Source of the DNA: Opitutaceae bacterium
GTDB taxonomy: Bacteria; Verrucomicrobiota; Verrucomicrobiia; Opitutales; Opitutaceae
Direction: 5' to 3'
Length of the DNA: 64,000 bases
Assembly (NCBI GenBank): GCA_050300215.1
Contig: JBNKXG010000001.1
Location: 276,627 to 340,626 of the forward strand
Made by a program: the position numbers and the translations under genes. Shown piece after piece: positions 40,968-57,245 of the stretch. The notes under the pieces were generated by a model, which did no database searches, was not told where the DNA came from, and saw nothing but the letters and a program-made list of their open reading frames with translations. Positions within the stretch are counted from its first letter, which is position 1. Each line of letters opens with the position of its first letter.

Positions 40968-41337
40968 GCTAACTTCTTTAGTGTGGATCAGGTCTTCAGG
41001 CTCTATCGATACATAGGCTTGGGAGCTTAAGCTCGAAATGCCTTAGGTACTGCACATTCTATGCTTTTTTCCGATATTGAGGAGAAGTCCCTGTTCTTAT
41101 CTGGGGAAGATCTCTCGGTCCTAAACTGGGGCGATGCTTGTTCGTTGTTATGCCGACTTTTTCCGCGAAGCGATTCGAAGAGTTTTCAGTTAGTTCCTGG
41201 AAGGATGCTGGGATGGCATAGGCTCGAGCGCGGCGAAGCGGGCTTGGTCAAGAAGGCCAAGCACCATGCTACAAGCGTGGTTCGCTCGCTTTTGATTAAT
41301 GGCCTTATGGAAGGCCTCGGAGTTGACCGGAGTCCGT

Positions 41338-41559
41338 CTAGCGCAGCCAGACTTGACGCGAGCGGGGGTTGCCCGAGCATTCGAAGTCGAGTCCTTCTTC
41401 GTCGAGGAATTCTTCGAGCTCAGAGACGGAAAAATCGTAGCCATCCTCTTTGGCGGCTGCGACGAATTTTTCTTTCGTTTCGATGACGTTGTACTTCGCT
41501 CGGAGAACCTTGTCGGAACCGCCAGCAAGCAGGAGTTTTTCTACGCTTTCTTTTGACAT
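41338..41559 (-). CDS. Nif11-like domain small protein (possible leader-peptide-type precursor)
   Basis: 73-aa protein: MSKESVEKLLLAGGSDKVLRAKYNVIETKEKFVAAAKEDGYDFSVSELEEFLDEEG-LDFECSGNPRSRQVWLR. The first ~55 aa follow the Nif11 pattern (helical, ...AAKEDGYDFS..EL). Codon usage resembles its neighbours. Confidence 0.6.
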   Translation of the reverse strand: MSKESVEKLLLAGGSDKVLRAKYNVIETKEKFVAAAKEDGYDFSVSELEEFLDEEGLDFECSGNPRSRQVWLR

Positions 41560-41711
41560 GATTTGCTTGAGTTTGAAGCAAACCGGGAAGCAGCGCGTGT
41601 ACCACTCCTAGCGTTTGATCGAATCAGAGCAGCAGTAATTACTCCACTTTATGGATACGATAAGAGTGGTCGGTTGCCGTTTTAGGGGCTATATTTTCGG
41701 GCGAGCAGTGC

Positions 41712-43502
41712 TTAAAGCGTAGCGATGTAGTTTCGCCAGTTGCCGTACTGCGTGACCTCGGTCGCTTCTGCGGTGGCGTAGGTTTCGCAGGAGAAGCCTT
41801 TGACGTGGGTGCCGTCGGCGAGCTCGACGTTGGCGATACCGAGAGGGGCGAGAATCTGGGCGACAAAGGCGGCCCATTGGGATTTGGGCAGATCCCAAAT
41901 CTCCAGTTCGATAGTGGCGCCGTTTTGTGAATCGCGGATCATGCCGGGCTTGGGAGGCGTGGTGCCCGGGAGGGCGAAGAGTCGATAGTGCGGGCTGGTG
42001 GCGGCAGTTCGATTAAAGGTGGCCCCGAGCTCGGTGAGCTGGTGGTTGAGGGGGAGGCCGCTCATGTGGGCGCCGCAGACGGCGATGGGAAGGGAGTCGT
42101 AGGTGGTGGGCTGGAGCTTGGCGTAGACTGTGTGTTCGGTAGCTCCGAGGGGGAGATCGCTGGCCTTTTGTAGTTGGTTGGCGATGACGAGAAGCTTTTC
42201 GTCGTGGAAGGCGGGAGCGATGAGGGTGATGCCGAAAGGCATCTTTTTCGGAGTGAAACCTGTAGGGACCGCGATGGAGGCGAGGTCGAGCAGGTTCATG
42301 AAGTTGGTATAGTATCCGAGGTTTGAATTCAGCTGGATGGGATTGGCCTCGACTTCGGCGATGGTGTAGTGGGTGCCGGCAGTGGGTGTTGCGAGGAAGT
42401 CGACCGAGTCCCAAAGGGGTAGTGTCTCCTGGCGGAAGGCTTGCAGTTTGTAGGAGGCGTCGAAGGCGTCTACCGCGGTGCCGTCGATGCCTTTCTCGAT
42501 GATGGCGCGGGTGACGGGGTGGAGGCTATCAGGCGCTTCTTTGATGAGCTCTTGGATGGCCCAGTAGCGCTCGGCAACCCATGGACCTTCGTAGAGGAGG
42601 CGGGCGGCGGCGAGGAAGGGAGAGAAGTCGATAACTTGGCGCTTGAAGCCGAGGGACTCGAGGCGCTCAAGGGATTTGAGGTAGAGATCGAGGTAGGCTT
42701 CGTCGCCGAAGAATTGGAGTTGCTCCGGTGAAGGCACCCCGAAAGTCATGCCTGGGCGATAGGTGCGGCGCGGTGTATCGAGATTTTGGGGAGTGTGACG
42801 CGAATAGGCGTCGGAAGCGTCGAAGCCTTGGGCGATGCGGAGAGCGCTTTGGGCGTCGGCGGCGTTGAGGGCGAAGATGGAAATGCAGTCCAGCGACTTG
42901 CAGGCGGGGACGAGGCCGGAATTGCTGAGCAGACCGCGGGATGGCTTGAGGCCGACGAGGTTGTTGAAACAAGCCGGGACGCGACCGGAGCCAGCAGTGT
43001 CGGTGCCGAGCGAGAAGGAAACTTGTCCAAGGGCAACGGATACGGCGGAGCCGGAGCTGGAGCCGCCGGGGATGTACTCTGGGTTGAAGGCGTTGCCGGG
43101 AACTCCGTAGGGAGAGCGGACGCCGACGAGCCCGGTGGCGAATTGGTCAAGATTGGTTTTACCGATAGGAATAGCTCCGGCGGCGCGAAGCTGGGCGACT
43201 ACGGTGGCGTCGGATTTGGCGAAATAGCGAAAGTCAGGACAAGCGGCGGTGGTGGGAAGGTTGGCGACGTCGATATTGTCTTTGACGGCGAAGGGGATGC
43301 CGTAGAGCGGGAGTTCCGCGGGGTTCTTGCTTTCGAGCTCGGCGGCTTGGGCGAGGAGGCGTTCAGCCGAGTCAACGCATATCCAGATTTTGGAGTCGCC
43401 TGATTCGATGCGGTCGAGGGTCTCGCGGATGATGTCGGTGGGCGTGAAATCTCCAGCAATGTAGCCTTGGCGGAGGGTGGTAATGTCGAAAGAGAGAGTC
43501 AT
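41712..43502 (-). CDS. Allophanate hydrolase (amidase signature family plus C-terminal AtzF-type domain)
   Basis: 596 aa with the amidase signature GGSSSGSAVSVALG and a conserved KDNIDV. The C-terminal ~120 aa is typical of allophanate hydrolases. It lies next to the urea carboxylase gene. Confidence 0.9.
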   Translation of the reverse strand: MTLSFDITTLRQGYIAGDFTPTDIIRETLDRIESGDSKIWICVDSAERLLAQAAELESKNPAELPLYGIPFAVKDNIDVANLPTTAACPDFRYFAKSDATVVAQLRAAGAIPIGKTNLDQFATGLVGVRSPYGVPGNAFNPEYIPGGSSSGSAVSVALGQVSFSLGTDTAGSGRVPACFNNLVGLKPSRGLLSNSGLVPACKSLDCISIFALNAADAQSALRIAQGFDASDAYSRHTPQNLDTPRRTYRPGMTFGVPSPEQLQFFGDEAYLDLYLKSLERLESLGFKRQVIDFSPFLAAARLLYEGPWVAERYWAIQELIKEAPDSLHPVTRAIIEKGIDGTAVDAFDASYKLQAFRQETLPLWDSVDFLATPTAGTHYTIAEVEANPIQLNSNLGYYTNFMNLLDLASIAVPTGFTPKKMPFGITLIAPAFHDEKLLVIANQLQKASDLPLGATEHTVYAKLQPTTYDSLPIAVCGAHMSGLPLNHQLTELGATFNRTAATSPHYRLFALPGTTPPKPGMIRDSQNGATIELEIWDLPKSQWAAFVAQILAPLGIANVELADGTHVKGFSCETYATAEATEVTQYGNWRNYIATL

Positions 43503-43508
43503 GTGTTA

Positions 43509-43787
43509 TTTGCCCACGAAGGACACGAAGTTCACTAAATCGGGAATGGATTTGGGATGAATGGGTTGCTCTTTTTTTTACCGCAGATGGACGCAGATGG
43601 GGAGGCTTGTGTTTGGTGGCGGTTGTGGGATTGCTCTGATGAGCAAGGTAGCGTGTTGTTGGGTTGTGTTTTTTTGCCTGTGACGGGCACGAATGGGCAC
43701 TAATTGATTTTAAAAGTATGAGTGAGGATTCGTGAGATTGGTGGGTTCACGAAGCTTTCGTTTTTCTTCGTGTACTTCGTGGGCAAA
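43509..43787. repeat. About 280-nt intergenic block bounded by 22-nt inverted repeats (MITE-like)
   Basis: TTTGCCCACGAAGGACACGAAG (43509-43530) pairs with CTTCGTGTACTTCGTGGGCAAA (43766-43787), matching at 21 of 22 positions. The block also contains the 85-nt repeat at 43563-43648. Confidence 0.45.
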
Positions 43788-43790
43788 AAA

Positions 43791-46700
43791 TTACGTTCTA
43801 AGAATTACTAGGTTTTGGCCTTTGTTGGAGGGGGATCCTTCTTGGGTGAGGAGTTGTTCGATGGTGCCGTCGGCGGGGGCGTTGATGTTGATTTCCATCT
43901 TCATGGATTCGACTATGAGGAGTACGTCGCCCTTTTTGACGGTGTCGCCTTCTTGTACGCAGATTTTCCATACGCTGCCGGGGACGTGGCTTTGGATGGC
44001 GCGGCAACCTTCGGGAATTTCGTTTTCTTCGATGGCTCCGCTAGAGAGTTCCTCGGCGACGTAGGTGGCTTGACCGGTTTCGATCCAGCGTTGGCGTTCG
44101 GCGTCGAAGGAGGCTTGTTGGTGGTCCTTGAAGGTCTTGATGTCTGCTTCGTTGTCCGAGAGAAACTTGTTGTACTCGGCGAGATCGAAGGTGGATTCTT
44201 CGACGCGGAGCTGGAAGCGGCCATGGACGAAGTCTTCGCGCATGGTGAGGAGCTCTTCTGAGGAGACTTCGTAGAAGCGGATTTGGTCGAAGAAGCGCAG
44301 GAGCCAGGGCTTTCCTTCCTTGAAGTCTTTGGTTTGCTTGTAGCGGTTCCACATTTGCACGGTTCTGCCGACGAACTGGTAGCCACCGGGGCCTTCCATG
44401 CCGTAGACGCAGAGGTAGGCACCGCCGATACCGACTGCGTTCTCCGGAGTCCAGGTGCGGGCGGGATTGTACTTTGTAGTGACGAGGCGGTGACGCGGAT
44501 CGACGGGGGTGGCGACGGGAGCGCCGAGGTAGACGTCGCCGAGGCCCATGACGAGGTAGGAGGCGTTGAAGAGGATGTCCTTGACGTCCTGGATCGAATC
44601 GAGGCCGTTGATACGGCGGATGAATTCGATGTTTGATGGGCACCACGGAGCGTTTTTGCGCACGGACTCGTATTTTTGGATAGCGAGCTGGGTGGCGGCG
44701 TCGTCCCATGAAAGCGGAAGGTAGACGGTGCGAGTGGGCACCTTCATCTCGGTTATGGCAGGGAGCTCGTCTTCGATTTGCTTGAGGCGGTCGACGAGGG
44801 TGTCGAGCGGGAGCTGCAAGCTTTGGTAGTGGATCTGAAGAGAGCGGATGCCGGGAGTGAGTTCTTGGATACCGGGAATGTTGGCGGACCGGACGGCTTC
44901 CATGAGAGCGTGAGCTCGGAAGCGGAGGTTGAGGTCGAGCTTCATTTCTCCGTATTCGACGAGCAGATACGCGTCGCCGGCGCGGCGGTAGGTGACGGCG
45001 GGGCGGTCGAGGATGGGCTGTTCTTCGATTTGTTCGAGGATGGCGTCATTTAGGCCGAAGCGCGACGCAAGGTCGCTTCCCACGGGAGAGGACGAATCGG
45101 AGAAAACTGTCTCTTGGGCGGCTTCGAGTTTGGTGGCGGTGCTTTGGTCGACTTTGGTGAAGCGGATGGTGTCGCCGGGCTTGAGTTGGCCCATTATCCA
45201 GAGGTCGGCTTTGATGATGGTAGCGGGGCAGACAAAGCCGCCGAGACTGGGGCCGTCGGGGCCGAGGATGACGGGCATGTCGCCGGTGAAGTCGATCGCT
45301 CCGATGGCGTAGGCGTTGTCGTGGATATTGGATGGATGAAGGCCCGCTTCGCCGCCGTCGGTGCGGGCCCACTTTGGCTTGGGACCGATGAGGCGCACGC
45401 CGGTACGGGCGGAGTTGTAGTGCACCTCCCAGTTGGCGGCGAAGAAGGTTTCGATGTCTTCGTCTGTGAAAAAGTCGGGCGCTCCGTGCGGGCCGTAGAG
45501 GACGCGGATATTCCAGTTGTTGGTGTATTCGGGAAGCTGTGACGGGAGGACGGTGGAGAGAGATTGAAGCTCTTGCGCGGATCGCGACGCTAGGTCGCTT
45601 CCCACATGGTGGTGGAAGTGGAGGACGTCGCCGGGGAGGAGGGTGCGTCCGCAGTGTCCTCCGAATTGCCCGAGCGTGAAGGTGGATTTCGAATCGAGGT
45701 AGTCGGGAACGTCGAAGCCTCCTTGGATGGAAAGGTAGGCGCGGCAGCCGTGTTCGGTGATTTTTCCGCAGTCAAGCTCGTCGCCGACGGCGATGGGGAT
45801 GGGCTGCCAGAAGGGTACGGGTTCGCCGTTGAGAGTGGCGTTGGTGGTAGCTCCGGTTAGGACGATGGTGGTGGCGTGGTTGAAGGCCAAGGTAGGGCCT
45901 GTCACCGTAATTTCGATACCGGCAGCGGATTCGGGGTTGCCGAGGATCTTGTTGCCGAGACGGAAGGAGTAGGGATCGAAGGGGCCGGAGGGCGGGACGC
46001 CGATGTCCCAGTAGCCGACGCGTCCGGGATAGTCTTGGATGGTGGTTTGGGTTCCCGCTTCGAGTACGTCGATGGTGCGGGGATGGTAGACGAGGGAGTC
46101 GCAGAACTTGGTGGTGTGCTCGGCGTCGAGAAAAGCGGGAGCGGCGAGGATGTTCTCTAGGTATTCGAGGTTGGTTTCGATGCCTTCGACTCGAGAGTCG
46201 GCGAGGGCTGTAGCGAGCTTTTTGATCGCGTCGTTACGATCGCTGCCTTTGGCGATGACTTTGGAGAGCAGGGGATCGTAGAAGGCGGAGACTTCGGTTG
46301 AGGTTTCGATCCAGGAATCGACGCGTACGTCGGAGGGGAAGTGGACTTGGGTGAGGAGGCCGGATGAGGGTTGGAAGTCCTTATTTGGGTCTTCGGCGTA
46401 GACGCGGGCTTGGATGGCGGCTCCGGTAGGTTTGATGGAAAGCGTATCCAGATCTGGCATCTCGCCCGCGGCTTGCTTGATCATCCACTCGACGAGATCG
46501 ACTCCGGTGACTTCTTCGGTGACGCAGTGTTCGACTTGAAGGCGGGTATTGACTTCGAGGAAGTAGAACTGGGCGGCATCGACGTCGTAGACGAATTCGA
46601 CGGTGCCGGCAGAGCGGTAGTTGACGCCTTTGGCGAGGCGGACGGCGGTATCCAGAAGTTCCTGACGCTGGCTTTCGGAGAGGGCGGGAGCGGGGGTTTC

Positions 46701-47417
46701 TTCGATGACCTTTTGGTTGCGGCGCTGCACGGAGCAATCGCGTTCGCCGAGGGCGATGACTTTGCCTTGGCCGTCGCCGAAGATTTGGGCTTCAATGTGG
46801 CGGGCGCGTTGGACGAACTTTTCGAGGAAGATTCCGGCGTTGGCGAAATTGTTTTGTCCGAGGCGTTTTACGGATTCGTAGGCGTCGCGGAGTTCGATCT
46901 CGGTCCAGCAGAGGCGCATGCCGATGCCTCCGCCGCCGGCGGTGGATTTGAGCATGACTGGGTAGCCGATGCGAGTGGCTTCGGAGCAGGCTTCTTCGAG
47001 CGTATCCACGAGGTCGCTACCGGGGAGGAGCGGAGCGTCGTTGGCGACGGCGATTTCGCGAGCGGTATGCTTGAGGCCGAACTCGATCATTTGCTGAGGA
47101 GTTGGGCCGATGAAGGCGAGGCCTGCGGCTTCGACTTGGGTGGCGAAGTCGGCGTTTTCGGAGAGTAGGCCGTAGCCGGGATGGATGGCTTGGGCTCCGG
47201 TGGATTGGGCGGCGGCGAGGATGGCTGCGGTGTTCAGGTAGCTCTCCTTGACAGGGGCGGGGCCGAGGCGGATGGCTTCATCGGCGAGGTCGACGTGTTG
47301 GGCGAAGCGGTCGGCGTCGGAGTAGACGGCGACGGACTGGATGCCCATCTTGCGAAGGGTGCGGATGATGCGGCAGGCGATTTCGCCTCGGTTGGCTATG
47401 AGAACTTTGTTGAACAC
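43791..47417 (-). CDS. Biotin-dependent urea carboxylase family enzyme (urea or guanidine carboxylase)
   Basis: 1208 aa. The biotin carboxylase N-terminus reads [20 protein letters not shown]. The central region resembles allophanate-hydrolase subunits 1/2 (KipI/KipA-like carboxyltransferase domains). The C-terminal biotinyl motif is IVESMKMEI. Confidence 0.95.
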
Positions 47418-47449
47418 GGTGGTTTGGTGGAGAGTGATTGGGTTGTGCT

Positions 47450-47534
47450 TTTTTTACCGCAGATGGACGCAGATGGGGTGTTTTGTGTTTGGTGGCGGTG
47501 GTGGGATTGCTCTGATGAGCAAGGGGGCGGTTTT
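47450..47534. repeat. Second copy of the 85-nt repeat GGGTTG..TTTTTTACCGCAGATGGACGCAGATGGGG..GTGTTTGGTGGCGGTKGTGGGATTGCTCTGATGAGCAAGG
   Basis: Roughly 90% identical by eye to 43563-43648, in the same orientation. It includes the hairpin TTGCTC-tgat-GAGCAA. Confidence 0.7.
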
Positions 47535-47578
47535 TAGAATTCTTTGTGCCGTTTGCGGTAGAGTACTGTTTTGCTGGT

Positions 47579-48214
47579 TTAGTCCCAGATGAGGGCTTCG
47601 ACGGGGGTGGGATTGTAGGCGTTGCAGGGGTTGTTGAGCTGCGGGCAGTTGGAGATGAGGGCGATGACGTCCATGAGGGCGACCATCTCGACGTAGCGGC
47701 CGGGGGCGGAGATGCCGTCGGCGAAGCTGAGTCCGCCTTCGGGGGTGACGGGCACGTTCATGAAGAAGTTGATGTTGCAGGTGATGTCGCGTTTGCCGAG
47801 GTCGTCGGAGTGGTCGTGGAGGCCGCAGATGAAGGAGTCGCGGCAGGCGTGCATGGGCTCCTTTTCGATTGCGTAACGCATGGTGTTGGATTCGCGGGAG
47901 CAGGCGCCGCCGATGGTGTCGTGGCGTCCGCAGGTGTCGGCGGTGATCTCGAGGAGGGCGTTGCCTTGGCTCGACATGAGCTTGGTGCCGGTGGTGAGGT
48001 AGAGGGCTTGTTGACAGCGGATGGTGTCGCTGGCGGAGTAGCGGTCTACGGGGTCGTGGGCGTTGTAGAAGAGTGTATCCGCTGCTTGGTTACCTTCGAG
48101 GTCGAGGATGCGGAAGGTTTGGCCTTTTTTGATGACGTGGCTCCAGTGGTCGCCAGCTTTGATGACCTGGCGGTAGACGGCGTCGGCGGGATTGAGGGTG
48201 GATTCGGTTAGCAT
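47579..48214 (-). CDS. DUF1989 protein (urea-carboxylase-associated protein 2 / carboxyguanidine deiminase subunit-like)
   Basis: 211 aa and paralogous to the upstream 238-aa protein, sharing DTLFYNAHD.., DT.G.HDT..G.C. It lies immediately upstream of the carboxylase. Confidence 0.85.
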
Positions 48215-48226
48215 GGTGGAGAAATT

Positions 48227-48308
48227 GGTAATTATGAATTATGAAGGATGAATTATGAGGGGACTGGATCGGGGTGGTGTGGACGCGGGCTGAAGCACCG
48301 CGCTACGC
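48227..48308. repeat. AT-rich repeat AATTATGAATTATGAAGGATGAAT followed by a copy of the REP-like element
   Basis: GGTAATTATGAATTATGAAGGATGAATTATGAGGGG lies at 48227-48262, and a related copy at 49037-49072. GGACGCGGGCTGAAGCACCGCGCTACGC lies at 48281-48308. Confidence 0.6.
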
Positions 48309-48314
48309 TTCTTG

Positions 48315-49031
48315 CTAGAAGCGGAGGGTGTTGTAGGTGATGGTGTTTTGGTAGGCTCGCTGGTTCTCGGAGCGGACTTGGAGGCTGGGATCGTCCGGGG
48401 CGACGGGCGCGGCTTCGGTGACGGTGAGCTGGATGGGTTTCGGGCTGTATTGGGGATTTGGATCGAAGGGGTGCGGGCAGGTGTTGAGGACGACGAGGGT
48501 GTCGAGCTCGAAGCGGAGCTCGACGTGGTCGCCTGCTTGGGAATGGTTTTCGACGTAGCTGAGCTTGCCGTCTTCGTCGGCGATCACTTTGGAGAACCAG
48601 TTGATGTTTGGTACGAGGTCGCGTTTGCCGAGGCCCCATTTGGTGAGCTCGATGAGGAAGCACTCTTGGGCGTTGCGGTAAAAGTCGTTGCGGAGGGTTT
48701 GGTAGTCGCCTTCGCCGTATTTGGATTTTACGGACGCAGCGTCGGAGGCGCCGCAGACGGTGTCGTGCCAGCCGCAGGTGTCGGCGGTGATGGAGGCGAA
48801 GAGACGGCCCATGTCGGAGTGTAGACAGTAGGGGGCCTTGAGGTGGAAGATGTATTGGCCTTTGAGAGTGTCGGGCATGTTGTAGCGCTCGTGCTTTTCG
48901 TAGGCGTTGTAGAGCAGCATGCCGACGTTGGCGCCGCCTTCGAGGTCGGTGAGGCGGAGGGTGCGGCCGCGCTTGATGACTTTGGACCACATGCCGGCTC
49001 CGGTGAGGGTTTCTTGATGGATGAGAGACAT
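48315..49031 (-). CDS. DUF1989 protein (urea-carboxylase-associated protein 1 / carboxyguanidine deiminase subunit-like)
   Basis: 238 aa and paralogous to 47579-48214. Its position is conserved in urea-carboxylase-region operons. Confidence 0.85.
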
Positions 49032-49036
49032 TTTTT

Positions 49037-49072
49037 GGAATTATGAATTATGAATTGTGAAGGATGAATGGG
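49037..49072. repeat. Second copy of the AT-rich repeat (GGAATTATGAATTATGAATTGTGAAGGATGAATGGG)
   Basis: It begins 6 nt upstream (in minus sense) of the start of the first DUF1989 gene. The copy at 48227-48262 sits 13 nt upstream of the second DUF1989 gene. Confidence 0.6.
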
Positions 49073-49074
49073 CG

Positions 49075-49521
49075 CTACTTTTGGTGGAGCGGGGGCATGA
49101 TGGTGGAGGAGAGGTTGAGCTTGCCGGTTTTGACGCCTTTGCAGGTGATGAGCTCGTTGGCAATGGCTCGTAGCTTTTGGGCGGGGCCCTGGACGACGAG
49201 GACTTCCATGATGTGATCGTCTTCGAGCTGGACGTGGAGGGAGCTGATGACTTCGGCGAGGTGCTTGCGCTGGATCTTGCTCAGGGTGCCTTGCAGGTTG
49301 TTGCGGCGGGTGCTGTAGAAGAGCGTGATGGTGCCGGCCATGACTTGCTCGTCCTCCTCGGCGCTGGCTTCGATTATCTCGCGGTTGAGAATCTCGGCGA
49401 TGGCTTGGGAGCGGTTGGCGAATCCACGCTGCTCCAGCACGCTGTCGAACTTGGCGAGCACGGAGCGCGGGATGGAGACACTGACGCGTTCTGCGGGATC
49501 TGTCATGTTTTCTTGATTCAT
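49075..49521 (-). CDS. NikR-family ribbon-helix-helix regulator with an ACT-like C-domain (nickel ligands mostly not conserved)
   Basis: The RHH domain reads RVSVSIPRSVLAKFDSVLEQRGFANRSQAIAEILNREI. The C-domain reads ...ITLFYSTRRNNLQGTLSKIQRKHLAEVISSLHVQLEDDHIMEVLVVQG.... An alternative start lies at 49506. Confidence 0.8.
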   Translation of the reverse strand: MNQENMTDPAERVSVSIPRSVLAKFDSVLEQRGFANRSQAIAEILNREIIEASAEEDEQVMAGTITLFYSTRRNNLQGTLSKIQRKHLAEVISSLHVQLEDDHIMEVLVVQGPAQKLRAIANELITCKGVKTGKLNLSSTIMPPLHQK

Positions 49522-49523
49522 AT

Positions 49524-49553
49524 AGTATTACGAATTTAGGAAAACGTAATACT
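49524..49553. promoter_or_regulatory. Perfect dyad AGTATTACG-N12-CGTAATACT, candidate operator of the NikR-like regulator
   Basis: 9-bp perfect inverted arms (49524-49532 and 49545-49553) lie between the GS-like stop (49589) and the regulator start (49521). Confidence 0.6.
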
Positions 49554-49588
49554 TTTGGTTCTGGTTAGGGCAAGCGTTTTTTGGAAAA

Positions 49589-50926
49589 TCAGTAGAGTCG
49601 AGCGTAGCGATCGATTTCCCACTGGCTGACGGTTTGGTGGTATTGGCGCCACTCTTCGCTTTTGTATTTTATGAACTCGTTGCGGAGGTCGGTGCCGAGG
49701 GTTTCTTCGACGAATGGATCGGCGGCAAAGGCGGCTACGGCTTCGTCGAGGGAGCGTGGGAGTTCGCAGATGCCGCGTGCGGCGAGTTGCTCGGGAGAGA
49801 GTTCGTAGAGGTTGTCCTCTTGGGCGTCGCCTGGGTCGAGGTTCTCTTTGATGCCTTGCAGGCCGGCGGCGATGGCGAGGGCGGCGGCGAGGTAGGGATT
49901 GCAAGCGGCGTCGGCGTTGCGGGATTCGACGCGTCCGCCTCCCATGGGTACGCGGAGGGAGTTCGTGCGGTTGTTGCTACCGTAGGAATTGAAGACGGGA
50001 GCCCAGGAGTAGTAGGACATGAGGCCTTTGCGGACGAGGCGCTTGTAGCTGTTGACGGTGGGGGCGAAGGCGGCGCAGAGGGCGGGGCCGTGCTTGAGGA
50101 TGCCGGCGCTGAATTGGTAGCCCAGTTTGGAGAGGCCGAGGCCGCGTGGATCGTCTTTGTCTTCGAAGAGGTTTTTGCCCGTTTTCGCGTCGGCGATGGA
50201 CATGTTGAAGTGGGCGCCGCTGCCGGTTTTGTTGGCGAAGGGCTTGGGCATGAAGGTAGCGACGAGGCCTTCTTCCGCGGCGTATTGCTTGGCCATCATG
50301 CGGAAGAAGATGTAGCGGTCGCACATGGTGAGGGCGTCGGCGTACTTGAAGTCGAACTCGAACTGGGAGTTGGCGTCTTCGTGGTCGAGCGAGTAGAGAT
50401 CCCAGCCAAGGTCGTTGATGGTAGTGGATACCTTGTCGATCCAGGTGTAGCGGTCCATGAAACGCTTCACGTCGTAGCAGGACTTCTCGAGGTTGTCGTC
50501 GTCGTTGGGGATCTCGAGTTTGCCGTCTTCGGTGAGGCGAACGACAAAGAGTTCGCACTCGATGCCGAGGTTGACGGCGAATCCCATGGCTTCGGCTTCG
50601 GCGAGGACTTTTTTGAGGGCGACGCGGGTGTTCACTTCGTAGGGTTGCCCTTTGAAGGTGTTGTCGGCGGGCATCCAGGCGACTTCCGGCTGCCAAGGGA
50701 GTTGGATGATGTGATTGGTATCGGGGAGGGAGGCGATTTCGTCGTCGTTGGGCGACTGTCCGAGTCCGTCGAGGGCGTATCCTGTGTAGAGCTCGGATCC
50801 GGAGGCGAAGTGTTCGAAATGGTCGATGGGTACGAACTTGCCCTTGGGCACGCCGTGGATGTCAACGTAGGCGCCGACGCAGTATTTGACGCCCTGGGCC
50901 TTGAGTTTGTTTTTGAGTTCTTCCAT
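49589..50926 (-). CDS. Glutamine synthetase family protein, type III / GlnT-GmaS-like (445 aa)
   Basis: N-terminus [33 protein letters not shown]...[18 protein letters not shown]. The catalytic domain has [22 protein letters not shown] and [23 protein letters not shown]. The start is the ATG at 50926. The 976-aa ORF-track entry is a spurious upstream read-through. Confidence 0.88.
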
Positions 50927-50987
50927 CTGGTGTTTTGTTCGGTGCGGGGCGAGTTTTTTGCCGCTTGGGCGTTGTTGCTGTTGCGTG

Positions 50988-51014
50988 TGGCCGCTGAGAC
51001 AGCGGCCGCTACCT
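50988..51014. repeat. 27-nt hairpin repeat TGGCCGCTGRGACAGCGGCCGCTACCT (copy 1)
   Basis: GGCCGCTG-aga-CAGCGGCC stem-loop. A near-identical copy (1 mismatch) lies at 57312-57338. Confidence 0.6.
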
Positions 51015-51024
51015 AGGTGGTGGT

Positions 51025-51822
51025 TTAGTTGTAGAATCCATCGGGGGCTCCTGACCATTGGTGGGCGGGCAGGGGCGGCTGTTCGGTTTTTGCTTTCTCG
51101 AGCTTTTCGGCGATGGCGGTGGTCATTTTTTGGAAGAGACGCGCTCCGTCTTCGGCATTGCCTAGGGAAGGGGCTCCGGTGGTGCCGTTTAAGCTTGTCT
51201 GGGAAACTGGATACGTGAATACGAGGCCGTCGGTACGGTCTTCGTCGTCGGCGGAGTTGAAGGCGGCTTGGTCGACGGTGTCCGGGGCGAGGTGGAGCAT
51301 GAGGTCGCACTCGCCTTTGTTGGCGTGGAGGTCGGCGGCGTCTTGGGTGAAGTGGTCCTCGATTTCCGAGTCGATGAAGAAGGTGTTCAGGAAACCTACT
51401 TGGAGGCGTCCCATCAGTTCGATGCGTATTTGATCTACGGCTACACGTATGGGAGCGTCGTTGCCGGCATGGGCATTGACGATGTAGAGCTTTTTCCAGC
51501 CGGTGGCTTCCGCCCATTTGGCGAATTGGACGAGGGTGTCGATGAAGGTCTTGGGCGAGAGCGAGAAGGTGCCCGGCCATTTGGTGGTGTGGCCTCCCGA
51601 GGAGGTGTAGGGCATGACGGGCGCCATGGCGACGTCGGCCTGGGCGCAGGCGGCTTGGCAAAGGGCGGTGGCGATCGTTGTATCCGTATTTATGGGAAGA
51701 GCGGGGCCGTGTTGCTCCGTTGCGCCTAGTGGCAGGACCAAGAGCGAGCTGCGTTCCTGCAGCTGTTTGATCTGCGGCCATGTCAGTTGCTCGATGCAAA
51801 TGCCTGGAAGGGTGGAGCTCAT
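51025..51822 (-). CDS. Creatininase-family amidohydrolase
   Basis: [18 protein letters not shown] (compare the creatininase motif LPVGALEQHG...D), plus IVNAHAGN and LHANKGECD. 265 aa. Confidence 0.85.
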
Positions 51823-51828
51823 GGGCGA

Positions 51829-52728
51829 TTACTCGACGTCGTCCTTGACGTTGGTCATGCGAATGATGGGCAGGTCGTGGTCGGTCGCTTCTTCCTTGGG
51901 ATGGATGAGTTCTTCCAGCCGTTGTTTGGTGGCGAGGAACTCGGGGCTGAGCAGGTGCTCGGGGGTGCGCGGTCTCGGCACGGGGACTTCGATGAATTCC
52001 TGGATTTCGCCCGGATTCGCTTTCAGCACGAGAATGCGGTCGGACAAGTAGATGGCTTCGTCGAGGTCGTGGGTGACGAACATGATGGTGACGTCCACGT
52101 TTTGCCAAATCTGCAGGAGGTGGGCCTGCATTTGGTTGCGAGTGTGCGGATCGAGAGCGCCAAAGGGCTCGTCCATGAAGAGGATTTGCGGCTGGTTGGC
52201 GAGGGCTCGGGCGATGGCGACGCGTTGTTTCATGCCTCCTGAAAGCTGGCTCGGATAGGCTTCGGCGGCGTGGGAAAGGCCGACTAGGTCGATCCATTGC
52301 ATGGCTTCTTGTTCGACGGCACTGCCCGAGCGTCCGTTGACTTCGAGACCGAACATGACGTTCTTCTTGACGCTCAGCCAGGGGAACAAGGTGTAGCCCT
52401 GGAAAACCATTCCGCGGTCGGCGCCCGGGCCGGAAGGGGCGTTGCCGTCGAGGAGGAAGGAGCCGCCGGAGAGGGTTTCCAGTCCAGCCAGCATGCGGAT
52501 GAGGGTCGACTTGCCGCAACCCGAGGGGCCGATGACGGAAATGAACTCGCGGCGATGGACGTTGAAATCGATCGGGCTGAGTACGTTGACGGTCCCCTTG
52601 GCGGTGGTGAAGCTCTTGCTGATGCCTTTGACCTCTAACTTGATCGGGCGTTTGTAGATGTCGGCGAAGCGCGCTTGTACGGCTTCGCTCTGCTCCTTGT
52701 AACTCGGCAGCGTTATGGATTCGCTCAT
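51829..52728 (-). CDS. ABC transporter ATP-binding protein (NitT/TauT family)
   Basis: Walker [10 protein letters not shown], signature [15 protein letters not shown] and Walker [13 protein letters not shown]. Confidence 0.92.
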
Positions 52729-54116
52729 GATTTAGCCTTTCCGTTGAGAGGTTCGGCGTAGACTTTCCGGTCTACTAGCCAGAAGAGGAAGCGGCCGATG
52801 GGGCCGTGTTTCTTGTCGGATGCCTCGGGCGTCCAAGGGAAGAGGTACTTGCGCAGGGACGACAGGAATTGGTCGGTGACGAAGCCTGAAATGCCGATGA
52901 GGATGATGATCGGGAAAACGCTGTCGAAGTTGCGCCAGCGGCCTTGCGTTTCGAGGAATTCGGTGAGGCCGCTCTTAACGCCGATGAGCTCCGCGATTAC
53001 CAGCCAGGTCCAGGCCCAGCCCAGGAGGATGCGGAGGTCGTTGAAGAGATTTGGCGTGATGCCCGGCAGGATGACGCGGCGGATGAGGGTGAAGTTTTTC
53101 GCTCCGAGGGTTTGGGCCGCTTCGAGTAGGGAAGCGTCGAGTTGGCGAGTGGTATTGGCCACGACGAGCACGAGTTGGAAGAAGGTTCCCACGAAGACCA
53201 AGGCGATCTTCGGGGCGTCGTGAGCGAGGAAGACGGCGACCAGCAGGGTGCTGAACGCGGGCGCCGGCATGTAGCGGAAGAAGTCGATGAAGGGCTCGAA
53301 GAGTTTGGAGAAGAAGTCGAAGGTTCCGCAAAGCACGCCGATGGGGACGCCGATCACGGCCGCCAGGAGGAAGCCGAAGAAGACGATGCGCAGCGAATGC
53401 TTGTAGCGCTCGAACATGGACGGCTTGTCGTCGTCGGATGAAAAGGTGAAGTCTTGGAAGCCTTTGATCAGGACCTCGTGCGGAGCGGGCAGGTAGACGG
53501 GATTGGTGGAGACGCCTTGGGGCACGAGTTTTTCCAAGGGGATTTCCGGGAGCAGCTTGGAGTCGAAGGTCGGTGAGCGTTCCGACATGAGAGCCCAGTT
53601 GCGAGTGGCGATGCCCTGGTTTTCGTCGGTGAACTTCACCTTTTTGTAGGGCAATTTTCCTTCGGCGACTCCTTGCCAGACTTGGTAGAGCAAGGCGTCT
53701 TCCTTGGCCTCGTCGCGGGAGAGCCATTGATTGGCGATGGCGGCGTCCGAGATGTGCCGCATGATCTTGAGGTTGGCGCGGCGTACTGCGAAGCCGGAGC
53801 CTTTGATATTTCCCGATTTTCGTTCGGCCAGAATGGCGGCGTTGTCGGACTGGATGGCGGCGACGAACTCCGGGAAGTAGCTCTTGGAAAGGTGGTCGCC
53901 CGCGGTGTAGACGGTGGTCACATCCGAGCGGTCGGCTGAGATGTGCAGCTTGATGTCGGGATGCCAGATGAAACTCGAGTAGCTGACAAAGGCCCAAACG
54001 AGCAGCGGCAGTATAAAAGAGGAGCAGGTCAGGACGAGCCTTTGCTTCGCGTCAAGGTCTTTGCGGATGGCGAACCACGGCCTAGATGCCTTGTTGTTTT
54101 TGTTTGCTTGGGTCAT
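52725..54116 (-). CDS. ABC transporter permease (NitT/TauT family) with a ~190-aa N-terminal extracytoplasmic extension
   Basis: One N-terminal TM is followed by a long soluble segment and then a BPD-transport core (...[27 protein letters not shown]...). 463 aa. 4-nt overlap with the ATPase gene. Confidence 0.88.
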
Positions 54117-54219
54117 GTACGCGTTTCGGAAATCGGGCTCGAGTCAGAGGGTGGGCAACAAGAAGGCGGGCCGGGCTGGGCCCGCCTTCGATTGGTTGAA
54201 GCTTGTATCCAACGAACCG

Positions 54220-55212
54220 TTACTTAACGGACTTGGCGTATTCCAAGGTCAGGCTTGGATCGAGATACTGGGAGGTCTTCAGCGGCTCGGGATAGACGCC
54301 CATGGATACGTTGAACTCGTCTGAAATAGCGGTGGAACCGTAGACGGAACCAAATCCTTCGGCTTCCTTCCAGATTGGAAGCACCTCGTCGAGGCCCAAG
54401 ATGTAGGTGCCGCTGAGGAATGGCTCGTACTCTTCAGGGCTGATGGCTACGCGGCCTGAGAGGATTTCGAGCACTTCGTCGATGTTGTCCTCGTCCTTCA
54501 TGTAGTCGACGATTCGATACCAGACCTTGACGACTTTCATCCAATCGTCGCGGCGCTTTTCGAGACTTTCGGGATCGACGCTCAAAAGGTCGTAGATGAC
54601 GCCAGGAACGTCGGCGGAAGTGAGCACTGGCTTGGAATTGGCGATGGTCTTGAGGGCCTGTCCGGAGTTGGGCTGCCAAGCGCCGATGGCGTCGACGGCG
54701 CCCGATGCGAGTACCTGTGGCGTTTCGTTGGTTGGCGTGTTGACGATGGTAAATTCGGACGGGTCGATGCCGGCGGCTTCGGCTCCCTTTATGAGGAGAA
54801 GGTGTTCCACGAAACCCTCTTCGAGGCCGATCTTCTTGCCCTTGAGATCCTCGAGCGAGTTGAATCCGGGAGCGGCTACGATCATGTCGTTGCCGTTGGA
54901 GAAGTCGTTGATGATGATGCCGACGGAAGGCTTGCCGGTGCCGCCGGTGACGAGGGCGTCGCCGTTGGTCATGGTGACCGCGTCGATCAATCCTGCGGCG
55001 TAGGCGTCCATGGAAGCGACGTAGTCCATCCACTGGAAGTTAACTTCGACGCCTTCCTCTTCGAACCAGCCCTTTTGGATGCCGATTTCCCAGGCGACCC
55101 AGCCTGGCCAGTCGGAGTAGCCGATTTTAAGAGGTTCCGCTTGAGTGAAAGGCAGAGCGGCGAGGAGGGAGAGCCCGGCGAGGGCGCGGGTAGCGAGGCG
55201 AGCGAACTTCAT
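54220..55212 (-). CDS. ABC transporter substrate-binding protein (NMT1/THI5-like, urea-carboxylase-region type)
   Basis: Signal peptide [25 protein letters not shown], followed by [18 protein letters not shown]..., as in NitT/TauT-family binding proteins. Confidence 0.88.
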
Positions 55213-55242
55213 ATGATTTTGGTCGTTCAGGTTTTATTAAGT

Positions 55243-55268
55243 TAATACGAAAAAGAATAATCGTATTA
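55243..55268. promoter_or_regulatory. Dyad TAATACGA-N10-TCGTATTA (core TAATACG-N12-CGTATTA), second candidate operator
   Basis: It lies 31-56 nt upstream of the binding-protein start codon. It has the same core and spacing as the dyad at 49524-49553, giving the consensus TAWTACG-N12-CGTAWTA. Confidence 0.55.
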
Positions 55269-55623
55269 CGATTCTGTCCGACTTTAAGCATTGCGCGCGC
55301 CATCTGCCTGTAATGGTTAGAATCAGGCTTAAACGAGCAAAAATGCGCAGCGGTTTGCCGAATAGGCGTTGAGAAATGATCAAATGAGTCTCCGCTCTGA
55401 AAGCGTCACGAGCTGACGGGCGCGAACATCGAATGTGCTTCAGTATGCCAGCCTGCAGTCGCTGGAGCGGGGGGATCACGTCTTGGACGCGAAGGATATC
55501 GAGCTTGCGATCGTGCGGGAGTATGAGAAAGAAGGGCGACTGGGCTAGGGGTAGGTTAGTGTTTCGCTTGTTGATCAAAAATTCGCTTTAGTTGTCGCTG
55601 TTCAGTCTTACTTCCTAACTACC

Positions 55624-56046
55624 ATGAGTCATTCGCGTAAACTTGAAGAGCTGGCGCTGGCGCTCGATATGTCCAGTGGTTCCGAAGACATTCCTGTTTA
55701 TGTATGCAAGTCGACAGGTGAGATCGTTTACGATGCGGAAGAGTATTCCGGAGAACCGTGCCCCGTTGAAGACATTGAAAACGACAATCGCTACGTGTGC
55801 CTTCCGGACAAGCACGATTTCGATTTGGGAACGCGGCTGGTGTGGCGTTTCGTCGAGCAAGGAATACCGGCATTGGAGCCGAAAGTTCGAAGGATTTTTT
55901 CGAGTCGCGGAGCCTATCGAAGGTGGAAGGATTTTCTGGACGACAACGATTTGCTGGAGGCTTGGTACAATTTCGAAAAGACGGCCCAAAATGAGGCCTT
56001 GCTAGAATGGTGTCGCGCTGAGGGTATCCAAATCGAAGGCGACTAG
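55624..56046 (+). CDS. Hypothetical protein (possibly UPF0158-like)
   Basis: 140-aa acidic protein whose C-terminal part reads ...SSRGAYRRWKDFLDDNDLLEAWYNFEKTAQNEALLEWCRAEGI. The family assignment comes from memory of a similar motif and carries low certainty. Confidence 0.5.
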   Translation: MSHSRKLEELALALDMSSGSEDIPVYVCKSTGEIVYDAEEYSGEPCPVEDIENDNRYVCLPDKHDFDLGTRLVWRFVEQGIPALEPKVRRIFSSRGAYRRWKDFLDDNDLLEAWYNFEKTAQNEALLEWCRAEGIQIEGD

Positions 56047-56067
56047 GTCGTTTTTTGGATACGGATG

Positions 56068-56099
56068 CTCGTAGCGCGGAGCTTTAGCCCGCGTCCGCG
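56068..56099. repeat. Copy of the REP-like element (CTCGTAGCGCGGAGCTTTAGCCCGCGTCCGCG)
   Basis: Identical over 32 nt to 14759-14790. Confidence 0.7.
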
Positions 56100-56273
56100 T
56101 TAACCTCGGGTTTCCAGCCGTTGAGACAGGTTCTTTCCTTTGCGTTGGTCGTAGCGGCTGTGACGAGCGAAGTTATTCAGGTTGGCAGGGACATTGAAGT
56201 AGGATTCGTCCAGCACCACGCTTGTTGGGTGTATCCAAAAATTGAGACGCAACGTTATCGGGTTTTTGTTTTG

Positions 56274-57245
56274 TTACGTTTCTTTGTAGTTGAGCAGGTT
56301 TGGGTCGAGGAGAGCCGCTGCTGGCAGTCTTTTCTGGGCGAGGTCTGCTAACGCTTCGTCGACAAAGGGGTATCGAAAGAGGAAGCGTTGCTCGAGCAGT
56401 TTAGCGGGGATGGCGTAGCGGCTTTTTAGGGTAAGTTCCGTTTCGGTGCGCATGAGCCAGGCTGCTATTTCGAGGATGGGTTTTAGATGGGGAATGCCGA
56501 AGGTCCTGCCTACGCTTTCGCGTAGGATTTTCATGAATACGGTATTTCGTACTGGAGCGGGTGCAGTTACGTTTATGGCTCCGGCGAGTTCCTCGTTGTT
56601 TATGACGAATTCTATGGCTCGAACAAAATCTGTCTCGTGGATCCAGCTGACCATTTGTTGTCCGTGGCTGATCTTGCCGCCGAGCCCGAAGCGAGCGAGG
56701 CGGGCGAGGATCGGGTAGACGCTGTTTTTGCCGTGACCGAGTACCATGCTGGTACGCAGGGCGACGCGTCGGATCGATGGAAGGTCGGTGGCGAAGAAGG
56801 CGGCTTCCCAGGCTTTGCATACTTCGACGGAGAAACCGTGTCCGTGCTCGCCGGTGTAGTCGTCCATCGGCTTGTTCAAACTATGGTGGTAGGTGGTGGC
56901 GCTGGCGGCGTTGAGCCAAACGTTTGGGGGATTTTTTGCAGTTTGTAGGGCTTCAGCCAATACGCGGGTGGGGCGGGTTCGGCTTTCTAGGATTTTGTTT
57001 CGGTTTTGGCGATTGTAGCGGCAGTTGACCGATTTTCCGCAGAGGTTGACGAGGGCGGTGGCGTTTTCGAGTTCTGCGGTCCAGGGGCCAAGGGTTTCTC
57101 CCTCCCAAGCTACGAGGCGTCCGACTAGGGGGCGGGCATGCGTATCGCGAGTGAGGATGACGACTTGCCAGCTTTTTTGAGCGAAGTGGCGAGCGAGGGC
57201 TTGCCCGAGGAAACCGGTGCCACCGGCGATGATGAGCTTGTTCAT
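56274..57245 (-). CDS. TIGR01777-type NAD-dependent epimerase family protein (SDR39U1-like, C-terminal DUF1731)
   Basis: N-terminus MNKLIIAGGTGFLGQALARHF (Rossmann GxxGxxG), 323 aa. ATG at 57245 is preferred over the 22-codon extension. Confidence 0.85.
   Translation of the reverse strand: MNKLIIAGGTGFLGQALARHFAQKSWQVVILTRDTHARPLVGRLVAWEGETLGPWTAELENATALVNLCGKSVNCRYNRQNRNKILESRTRPTRVLAEALQTAKNPPNVWLNAASATTYHHSLNKPMDDYTGEHGHGFSVEVCKAWEAAFFATDLPSIRRVALRTSMVLGHGKNSVYPILARLARFGLGGKISHGQQMVSWIHETDFVRAIEFVINNEELAGAINVTAPAPVRNTVFMKILRESVGRTFGIPHLKPILEIAAWLMRTETELTLKSRYAIPAKLLEQRFLFRYPFVDEALADLAQKRLPAAALLDPNLLNYKET

Follow-up and report, generated by a model that had tools for sequence, protein, structure and literature searches.

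A glutamine-synthetase-like ligase and a creatininase-fold hydrolase form a conserved gene pair in a variant of the bacterial guanidine carboxylase operon

Guanidine has been recognised as a real nitrogen source only recently. To our knowledge two routes of its degradation are known, the carboxylase route and the nickel guanidinase. The carboxylase pathway brings together an ATP-binding cassette (ABC) transporter, two DUF1989 proteins, a carboxylase and an allophanate hydrolase in one operon. Here we describe a guanidine carboxylase operon variant that carries two new enzyme subfamilies, found in 64,000 nucleotides (nt) of DNA from an Opitutaceae bacterium (Verrucomicrobiota; GenBank assembly GCA_050300215.1, contig JBNKXG010000001.1, positions 276,627 to 340,626), referred to as the window. 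The two enzymes are a ligase of the glutamine synthetase (GS) family, here called GS1, and a creatininase-fold hydrolase. Their genes are intact, co-oriented members of a ten-gene operon, and in at least five phyla they occur together and in the company of guanidine/urea-type catabolic genes.

Accessory enzymes are described for one operon of this kind. In Vreelandella boliviensis the enzymes MgdH and MgdL are inserted in the guanidine carboxylase operon and widen its substrate range (PMC12508155). These are a 2-oxoglutarate dioxygenase and a lyase, whereas the accessories of the window are a GS-like ligase and a creatininase-fold hydrolase. GS-like ligases occur in several amine degradation systems. 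In the Puu (polyamine) and Ipu (isopropylamine) pathways such a ligase glutamylates the amine, the glutamylated form is oxidised and a hydrolase removes the glutamyl group. The aniline and 1-naphthylamine dioxygenase systems (AtdA1-A5, NpaA1-A5) likewise combine a GS-like ligase and a GAT-like hydrolase with a Rieske oxygenase that acts on the glutamylated amine (PMC11335346). Loci related to that of the window resemble these systems in carrying C26 or gamma-glutamyltranspeptidase (GGT) hydrolases and Rieske oxygenases beside the pair. However, GS1 belongs to another clade, and its constant partner is a creatininase-fold metallohydrolase, not a GAT-like protein. The context in the window is C1-nitrogen scavenging rather than aromatic or polyamine catabolism, and the window operon itself has no oxygenase, C26 or GGT gene.

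The operon was read on the minus strand at 41.7-55.2 kb of the window, with assignments made from Pfam and NCBIfam scores. All ten genes lie on that strand with intergenic gaps of -4 to 288 nt; the operon is flanked by two unrelated genes, one for a chemotaxis receptor and one for an epimerase. The gene of the 265-aa creatininase-fold binuclear-metal amidohydrolase (51025..51822; PF02633) precedes that of GS1 (49589..50926, 445 aa, ATG start; PF00120 and TIGR03105). A sequence-only reading of the window had pointed to both genes; they lie where it placed them on the minus strand, and the GS N-terminus, the protein lengths and the motifs that it quoted are all present. Downstream, the set that defines a guanidine carboxylase operon is complete, with all four models over their cut-offs. 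It comprises two DUF1989 (PF09347) proteins that resemble carboxyguanidine deiminase subunits, one of UAAP1 type (48315..49031; TIGR03425, 335 bits, cut-off 206) and one of UAAP2 type (47579..48214; TIGR03424, 328 bits, cut-off 285), a biotin-dependent urea/guanidine carboxylase of 1208 aa (43791..47417; TIGR02712, 1908 bits, cut-off 1304) and an allophanate hydrolase (41712..43502; PF01425 and PF21986; TIGR02713, 789 bits, cut-off 511). The presence of the DUF1989 pair suggests that the carboxylase would prefer guanidine over urea. The sequence-only reading had held that neither accessory enzyme belongs to the described guanidine or urea carboxylase pathways. Indeed, in the literature on guanidine/urea carboxylase, creatininase and GS-like ligases we found no paper that links either enzyme to these pathways, and none on the GS1-creatininase-like pair in this context.

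Conservation of the pair was assessed in 141 unique genomic loci whose GS1 orthologs are 58-100% identical to that of the window; 111 of these have at least 2 kb of sequence on both sides and 76 have at least 9 kb (wide flanks). The hydrolase gene lies within 1 kb of GS1 in 88 of the 111 loci and within 3 kb in 96, in either gene order. Among the 76 wide-flank loci a hydrolase gene is present in 73, a transporter substrate-binding protein (SBP) gene in 71, a DUF1989 gene in 50 and a carboxylase gene in 37. The pairing with carboxylase loci, on which the sequence-only reading had staked its proposal, is strongly conserved in relatives. That reading missed that the pair is at least as tightly tied to the ABC transporter (71/76) as to the carboxylase. 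Pair-bearing GS1 loci were found in Verrucomicrobiota, Gammaproteobacteria, Armatimonadota and Thermodesulfobacteriota.

An actinobacterial sister clade includes Mycobacterium palustre, M. asiaticum, Dactylosporangium and many Acidimicrobiia. Its GS adjoins a creatininase-like gene in 46 of 47 loci. The 37 sister-clade loci with wide flanks contain Peptidase_C26, a PuuD-like gamma-glutamyl hydrolase (21 loci), the carboxylase (15), arginase-family genes (11) and isochorismatase-family genes (8). Carboxylase-pathway genes are usual in GS1 and sister-clade loci. One Abditibacteriaceae locus has the pair flanked by a GGT gene and an arginase-family gene; it also contains two neighbouring isochorismatase-family genes and lacks a carboxylase.

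The exact ten-gene order recurs in Thioalkalivibrio sulfidiphilus ALJ17, Ca. Thiodiazotropha, Spongiibacteraceae, Sedimenticolaceae and other Gammaproteobacteria. Because the same layout is found in distant phyla, the operon appears to travel as a unit. In a neighbour-joining (NJ) tree these gammaproteobacterial GS1 sequences group with those of Luteolibacter and the window, while Chthoniobacter falls outside, a grouping that suggests horizontal transfer of the whole operon. Two metagenome contigs carry a tight operon of 13-14 genes, all on one strand, in the order DUF1989-DUF1989-UC-AH-SBP-perm-ATPase-(SDR)-deacetylase-creat-GS-Rieske-FGE-TIM (UC, carboxylase; AH, allophanate hydrolase). A contig of an Opitutaceae metagenome-assembled genome (L001) matches the window at 95-100% protein identity.

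GS1 matches PF00120 (1.5e-94) and TIGR03105, 'type III glutamate--ammonia ligase', with 642.2 bits (cut-off 469.6) over residues 5-442 of 445. It stays under the cut-off of the GlnA model TIGR00653 (297.6 bits, cut-off 429.15). The closest solved relatives are two GmaS structures, PDB 7cql (RhGmaS, from Rhodovulum) and PDB 9qur, at 409 and 314 bits, and identity to canonical GmaS is about 41-45%. In a search of 1.8 billion 50%-identity representatives its own family scored 674 bits; the values then fell steeply, to 504, 419 and, for GmaS-like clusters, about 390 bits. The tree, a simple distance tree with bootstraps and not a maximum likelihood one, recovered the GS1 clade as monophyletic in 60 of 60 bootstraps, apart from the canonical GmaS clade and from GlnA-like sequences; the GmaS structures and an Acinetobacter GmaS fell outside it. 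The sequence-only reading had assigned the protein to the short GlnT/GmaS-like group, which the TIGR03105 score, the nearest structures and the tree all bear out. It had also proposed a phylogenetic placement as a check, and GS1 does not cluster with GlnA-like sequences. By these sequence comparisons GS1 is a clade distinct from both GmaS and GlnA.

The residues of GS1 were mapped from the published description of RhGmaS (PMC7948447). The metal ligands (E123, E125, E183, E190, H239, E334) and the arginines for glutamate and phosphate (R296, R320, R325, R336) are kept. The catalytic set Arg312/Asp177/Glu186 of RhGmaS corresponds to R320, D181 and E190, and the Trp flap to W308. Like GmaS, GS1 lacks Asp50' and Lys30' (PMC7948447). 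At the four columns that separate GlnA from GmaS it has T48 and not Asp50', A51 and not Ser53', D181 and not His, and W308 and not the flap Glu327; GlnA-like representatives have Asp, Ser, His and Glu there. The proposal of the sequence-only reading that the enzyme serves local ammonia assimilation is disfavoured by the GmaS state at all four.

GS1 nevertheless differs from RhGmaS at four pocket or nucleotide residues, with S179 for Q175, D192 for N188, F193 for W/Y189 and N241 for H237. This signature is kept in 74 of 74 verrucomicrobial orthologs, in the GS1 of Gammaproteobacteria, Armatimonadota and Thermodesulfobacteriota, and in 60 of 60 actinobacterial sister-clade GS, which are 42% identical overall. 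The Asn for the second His in the motif GSGAHFNMS, flagged in the sequence-only reading, is real (N241, aligned with the adenine contact His237 of RhGmaS), but it is not an anomaly, as Asn is invariant in the family. The view of this substitution as a defect was rejected, Asn being conserved in the GS1 family and present in GlnA-like proteins. Two further differences from GmaS lie in the gene context. The partner of GS1 is a creatininase-fold hydrolase, and the window operon and its flanks contain no genes for N-methylglutamate synthase or dehydrogenase, which the GmaS locus of an Acinetobacter plasmid does have. That plasmid came from a search of a plasmid collection in which GS1 found only canonical GmaS-type relatives of at most 45% identity, one of them (Acinetobacter) with the full N-methylglutamate gene set.

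From these residues GS1 is predicted to be an active ATP-dependent ligase, which would phosphorylate glutamate at its gamma-carboxylate and couple it to an organic amine. An ammonia-assimilating GS is not expected, because the GmaS states occur at all discriminating positions and gamma-glutamyl hydrolases co-occur. Methylamine, named in the sequence-only reading as a possible captured amine, is probably not the substrate, since the pocket is changed at four invariant positions and a GmaS with the canonical signature coexists with GS1 in one Armatimonadota cluster.

A second GS paralog, 42-45% identical, directly follows the hydrolase gene in some Verrucomicrobiales loci (L013, 6804-8228; L016, 6921-8345; L060, 7999-9426; and others like them). 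It keeps S179, D192 and N241 and swaps G235 for R and R296 for G. These swaps suggest that the carboxylate-binding Arg has moved and that the acid substrate may differ.

The hydrolase covers positions 1-237 of the 238 of PF02633 (202 bits, 1e-59). It resembles creatininase (P. putida, PDB 1j2t; Nostoc homolog, 3no4) in the full-length fold family, the five metal ligands and the catalytic His. In the P. putida enzyme we take the metal ligands to be Glu34, His36, Asp45, His120 and Glu183, the catalytic residue to be His178, and the creatinine pocket to be formed by Ser78, Tyr121, Glu122, Trp154 and Trp174. All 129 sequences of the window family share the corresponding metal ligands E36, H38, D47, H118 and E171 as well as the catalytic H166. 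In contrast, S78, Y121, E122 and W174 are not conserved. H120-Y121-E122 aligns with H118-A119-G120 of the window protein, its pocket positions are G76, A119 and G120 with no equivalent of Trp174, and these positions vary within the 129 sequences. The alignment upholds the description in the sequence-only reading of a creatininase-fold metalloenzyme, with the motifs EQHG...D and NAHAGN, in which the creatinine-specific Glu is replaced by Gly (G120). The protein thus appears to be an active binuclear-metal amide hydrolase with a substrate other than creatinine.

Assignment to a named member of this fold was not supported. A bona fide creatininase was rejected on the score to TIGR04448 (100.9 bits, far under the cut-off of 235) and on the pocket residues. 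The closest NCBIfam model, TIGR03964 (MftE), scores 148.7 bits (cut-off 172); MftE was rejected on this score and on the absence of mycofactocin genes from the operon and its flanks. The curated cut-offs for IolN and ArfB are not reached either. The 'creatininase' msmeg_1425 of M. smegmatis was rejected as a member of the pair, its locus number being away from the carboxylase genes msmeg_2187 and msmeg_2189; we take that number to place it beside the mycofactocin genes. In the plasmid collection the hydrolase found only distant (24-31%) creatininase-family matches from Sinorhizobium and haloarchaea, in unrelated contexts.

On the basis of gene context, the reading that we favour, with a probability of roughly 0.4, is that the pair forms a gamma-glutamylation branch that serves guanidine-type nitrogen compounds. 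It is favoured because the non-homologous neighbour sets of the pair (the carboxylase route, the arginase family and the isochorismatase family) share a guanidine/C1-nitrogen theme. The latter two families include guanidinase, guanylurea hydrolases and biuret hydrolases. GS1 would couple glutamate to an amine that is small, rich in nitrogen and probably cationic, the best guess being guanidine in free or substituted form. Hydrolysis of an acyl-guanidine-type intermediate, or of its precursor, would fall to the creatininase-fold enzyme; creatinine, too, is an acyl-guanidine, in cyclic form. Urea or guanidine, together with Glu or Gln, would result and pass through the carboxylase, CgdAB and allophanate hydrolase to ammonia. 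In relatives, dedicated gamma-glutamyl hydrolases (Peptidase C26 or GGT) would complete the branch and Rieske oxygenases would extend it, an architecture that has precedents in the gamma-glutamyl pathways for aniline and isopropylamine.

Several points weigh against this proposal. The identity of the amine is a guess from sequence. The window operon has neither a dedicated gamma-glutamyl hydrolase nor an oxygenase, and a hydrolase that merely reversed the ligase would make the two futile. The carboxylase route handles free guanidine without helpers, and a second guanidine route in the same operon looks redundant. The residues D192, F193 and N241 are often present in GlnA-like representatives (in the case of Asn, in GHNS rows), and they may be ancestral rather than an adaptation to a new amine. 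About one third of the wide-flank GS1 loci have no DUF1989 or carboxylase gene inside 10 kb. In the Capsulimonadaceae the pair is found among methylated-amine genes with no carboxylase within 10 kb. This chromosomal island of the Armatimonadota (L083, 2676-15334) contains, besides the pair, a DmmA-like reductase, a haem-dependent N-demethylase-like protein, an APC permease, a MOSC protein, a molybdopterin oxidoreductase, a glutamate-synthase-like FMN protein, a DAO oxidase and a second GS, which carries the canonical GmaS signature beside GS1.

A more specific version of this branch, which we consider rather unlikely, is that the pair amounts to a third, ATP-activated route of breaking guanidine. 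GS1 would make gamma-glutamylguanidine and thereby turn the very unreactive guanidinium ion into an acyl-guanidine, which the creatininase-fold enzyme would hydrolyse to glutamine and urea, or to gamma-glutamylurea and ammonia. The C26 or GGT hydrolase would complete this step in some lineages, and the urea would go to the carboxylase and allophanate hydrolase. If true, the reactions would be new for both enzyme families.

We regard as similarly doubtful an explanation that follows the first option of the sequence-only reading. Here a creatinine-like guanidino or ureido compound, cyclic or acylated, would be imported and then opened or deacylated by the hydrolase, the carboxylase route would take the guanidino carbon and GS1 would trap the leftover alkylamine as a gamma-glutamyl amide. 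The hydrolase family does consist of cyclic-amide and amide hydrolases, its gene is translationally close to the transporter genes, and GS1 is of GmaS type. In the Capsulimonadaceae the pair is followed by the glutamate-synthase-like gene and the DAO-type oxidase, as in amine pathways of the N-methylglutamate type, and the larger loci also encode a PuuE-like ring hydrolase as well as a Rieske oxygenase of N-demethylase type that resembles GbcA. However, the creatinine-binding residues are absent, the GmaS pocket is changed while a canonical GmaS coexists with GS1 in one cluster, and the window operon has no enzyme that would process a gamma-glutamyl alkylamide further. ATP-costly capture of a by-product would also not account for the constancy of the pair, which exceeds that of any other accessory of the operon.

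The chances are poorer that GS1 is a true glutamine synthetase which assimilates the ammonia of the pathway, with the hydrolase as an unrelated amidase releasing extra ammonia. Ammonia is the sole product common to the carboxylase, arginase-family and isochorismatase-family neighbour sets, D192, F193 and N241 are GlnA-like states, and GmaS enzymes accept ammonium weakly (PMC7948447). Against this, Asp50', Ser53' and the flap Glu are missing, Asp replaces the GlnA His, and TIGR00653 gives 298 bits against a cut-off of 429. A glutamine synthetase encoded beside gamma-glutamyl hydrolases (C26, GGT) would make a futile arrangement, and the tight pairing with the hydrolase would be unexplained. The operon has, moreover, moved into Gammaproteobacteria, hosts that already possess their own GlnA.

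We rate no higher a buffer or safety valve, in which GS1 would tie up guanidine imported in excess, or some other ammonia analogue, as a glutamate conjugate from which the hydrolase would free it again. The toxic free cation, or the conjugate, would be held at a safe level while a slow carboxylase works. Creatinine is an acyl-guanidine, so that an acyl-guanidine amidase would be plausible for the fold, and the window operon has no other enzyme that would act between ligase and hydrolase. A ligase with a reversing hydrolase is documented in the aniline dioxygenase systems, whose GAT-like enzyme keeps toxic gamma-glutamylanilide in check (PMC11335346). However, ATP would be spent with no net conversion, and in actinobacterial loci a C26 hydrolase is encoded in addition to the creatininase-like enzyme, which argues that the latter does more than simply reverse the ligase. 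That the two genes are neighbours by chance or shared regulation, with no guanidine or urea role, is very improbable: the third of wide-flank loci without a carboxylase-pathway gene inside 10 kb and the different Capsulimonadaceae context speak for it, but the two genes stay adjacent in at least five phyla and at GS identities as low as 42%, they lie inside single tight operons with carboxylase genes, and the pair also accompanies the non-homologous arginase and isochorismatase families with their guanidine, guanylurea and biuret hydrolases.

The three genes upstream of the pair encode an ABC transporter. The substrate-binding protein (54220..55212) is NMT1/SsuA-like (PF09084 and PF13379) and a distant relative of the urea-carboxylase-associated SBP (TIGR03427, 141.9 bits, under the cut-off of 333.9). 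The permease gene (52725..54116, 463 aa; PF00528) overlaps by 4 nt with that of the NitT/TauT-type ATPase (51829..52728; PF00005), whose best NCBIfam matches are the SaoA, nitrate and taurine ATPases. The creatininase-like gene starts 6 nt past the ATPase stop. The BPD_transp_1 domain of the permease spans residues 256-418 only and is preceded by an N-terminal extension of about 250 residues; tblastn matches in relatives cover most of the protein length.

Between the GS1 and DUF1989 genes lies a gene missed by the sequence-only reading (49075..49521). It encodes a NikR-like regulator of 148 aa with a ribbon-helix-helix domain and NikR_C (PF08753, 80 bits; NF003381, 126 bits). A homolog is found in 46 of the 76 wide-flank GS1 loci, either divergent from the transporter genes or directly ahead of DUF1989. 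This protein is probably the regulator of the operon. No His/Cys column conserved at 90% or more was found in 68 NikR-like homologs; because of this a nickel site seems unlikely despite the NikR family score, and the protein may sense something other than nickel. The described guanidine carboxylase pathway differs from the window locus in having a guanidine riboswitch, which the NikR-like protein may replace here. An Rfam scan of the whole window found no riboswitch or other RNA family at gathering score, and a relaxed scan (E up to 1) of 41000-56600 gave nothing relevant and no guanidine riboswitch. Scans of the operon for terminators and promoters gave no signal above chance. The sequencing runs that carry the window sequence are DNA metagenomes only. 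The stretch of about 1 kb upstream of the transporter genes (55213-56273) has no Pfam-matching open reading frame (ORF) and no RNA family match; two small ORFs in it (113 and 124 aa) are likewise without Pfam matches. It may hold the promoter and operator.

In most Verrucomicrobiales loci extra genes are inserted between the pair and the carboxylase genes. These encode a GbcA-like Rieske oxygenase, an FGE/PvdO-like protein, a TIM-barrel protein, a GFA-family protein and a second transporter, and occasionally a PuuE-like deacetylase, an SDR or the GS paralog. A Rieske gene is present in 41 of the 76 wide-flank GS1 loci. The GbcA-like Rieske, FGE/PvdO-like and TIM-barrel genes form a constant set beside the pair (L016, L025, L047, L239, L241 and about 40 others), often joined by the GFA-family protein, deacetylase, SDR and second transporter. 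None of these extension genes occurs in the window. The set looks like an oxidative, possibly N-demethylating, extension of the pathway.

The gene models needed some care. The GS1 start was set at the ATG at 50926 because homologs are 445-473 aa long. A 976-aa ORF with a TTG start (49589-52519) was rejected as a gene; it is the GS1 frame staying open upstream. Spurious long ORFs, such as one of 460 aa on the plus strand, shadow the real genes across 42-52 kb. The plus-strand GC skew there is strongly positive (0.26-0.33) with the genes on the minus strand, and the coding strand is therefore markedly C-rich.

The pair points to an unknown step in the bacterial use of guanidine-type compounds. 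The operon that bears it is found in marine and freshwater Verrucomicrobiota and in sulfur-oxidising Gammaproteobacteria, and mycobacteria and Acidimicrobiia have a sister form of it. The question can be tested directly, since both proteins are ordinary soluble enzymes and several carriers, among them Luteolibacter sp. AS25, Haloferula and Thioalkalivibrio sulfidiphilus ALJ17, are in culture. Solving the reaction of the pair would correct the misleading database names of the homologs, which their sources label 'type III glutamate--ammonia ligase' and 'creatinine amidohydrolase'. It would also show either new substrates that feed the guanidine pool (substituted, cyclic or acylated) or a new chemistry of guanidine activation.

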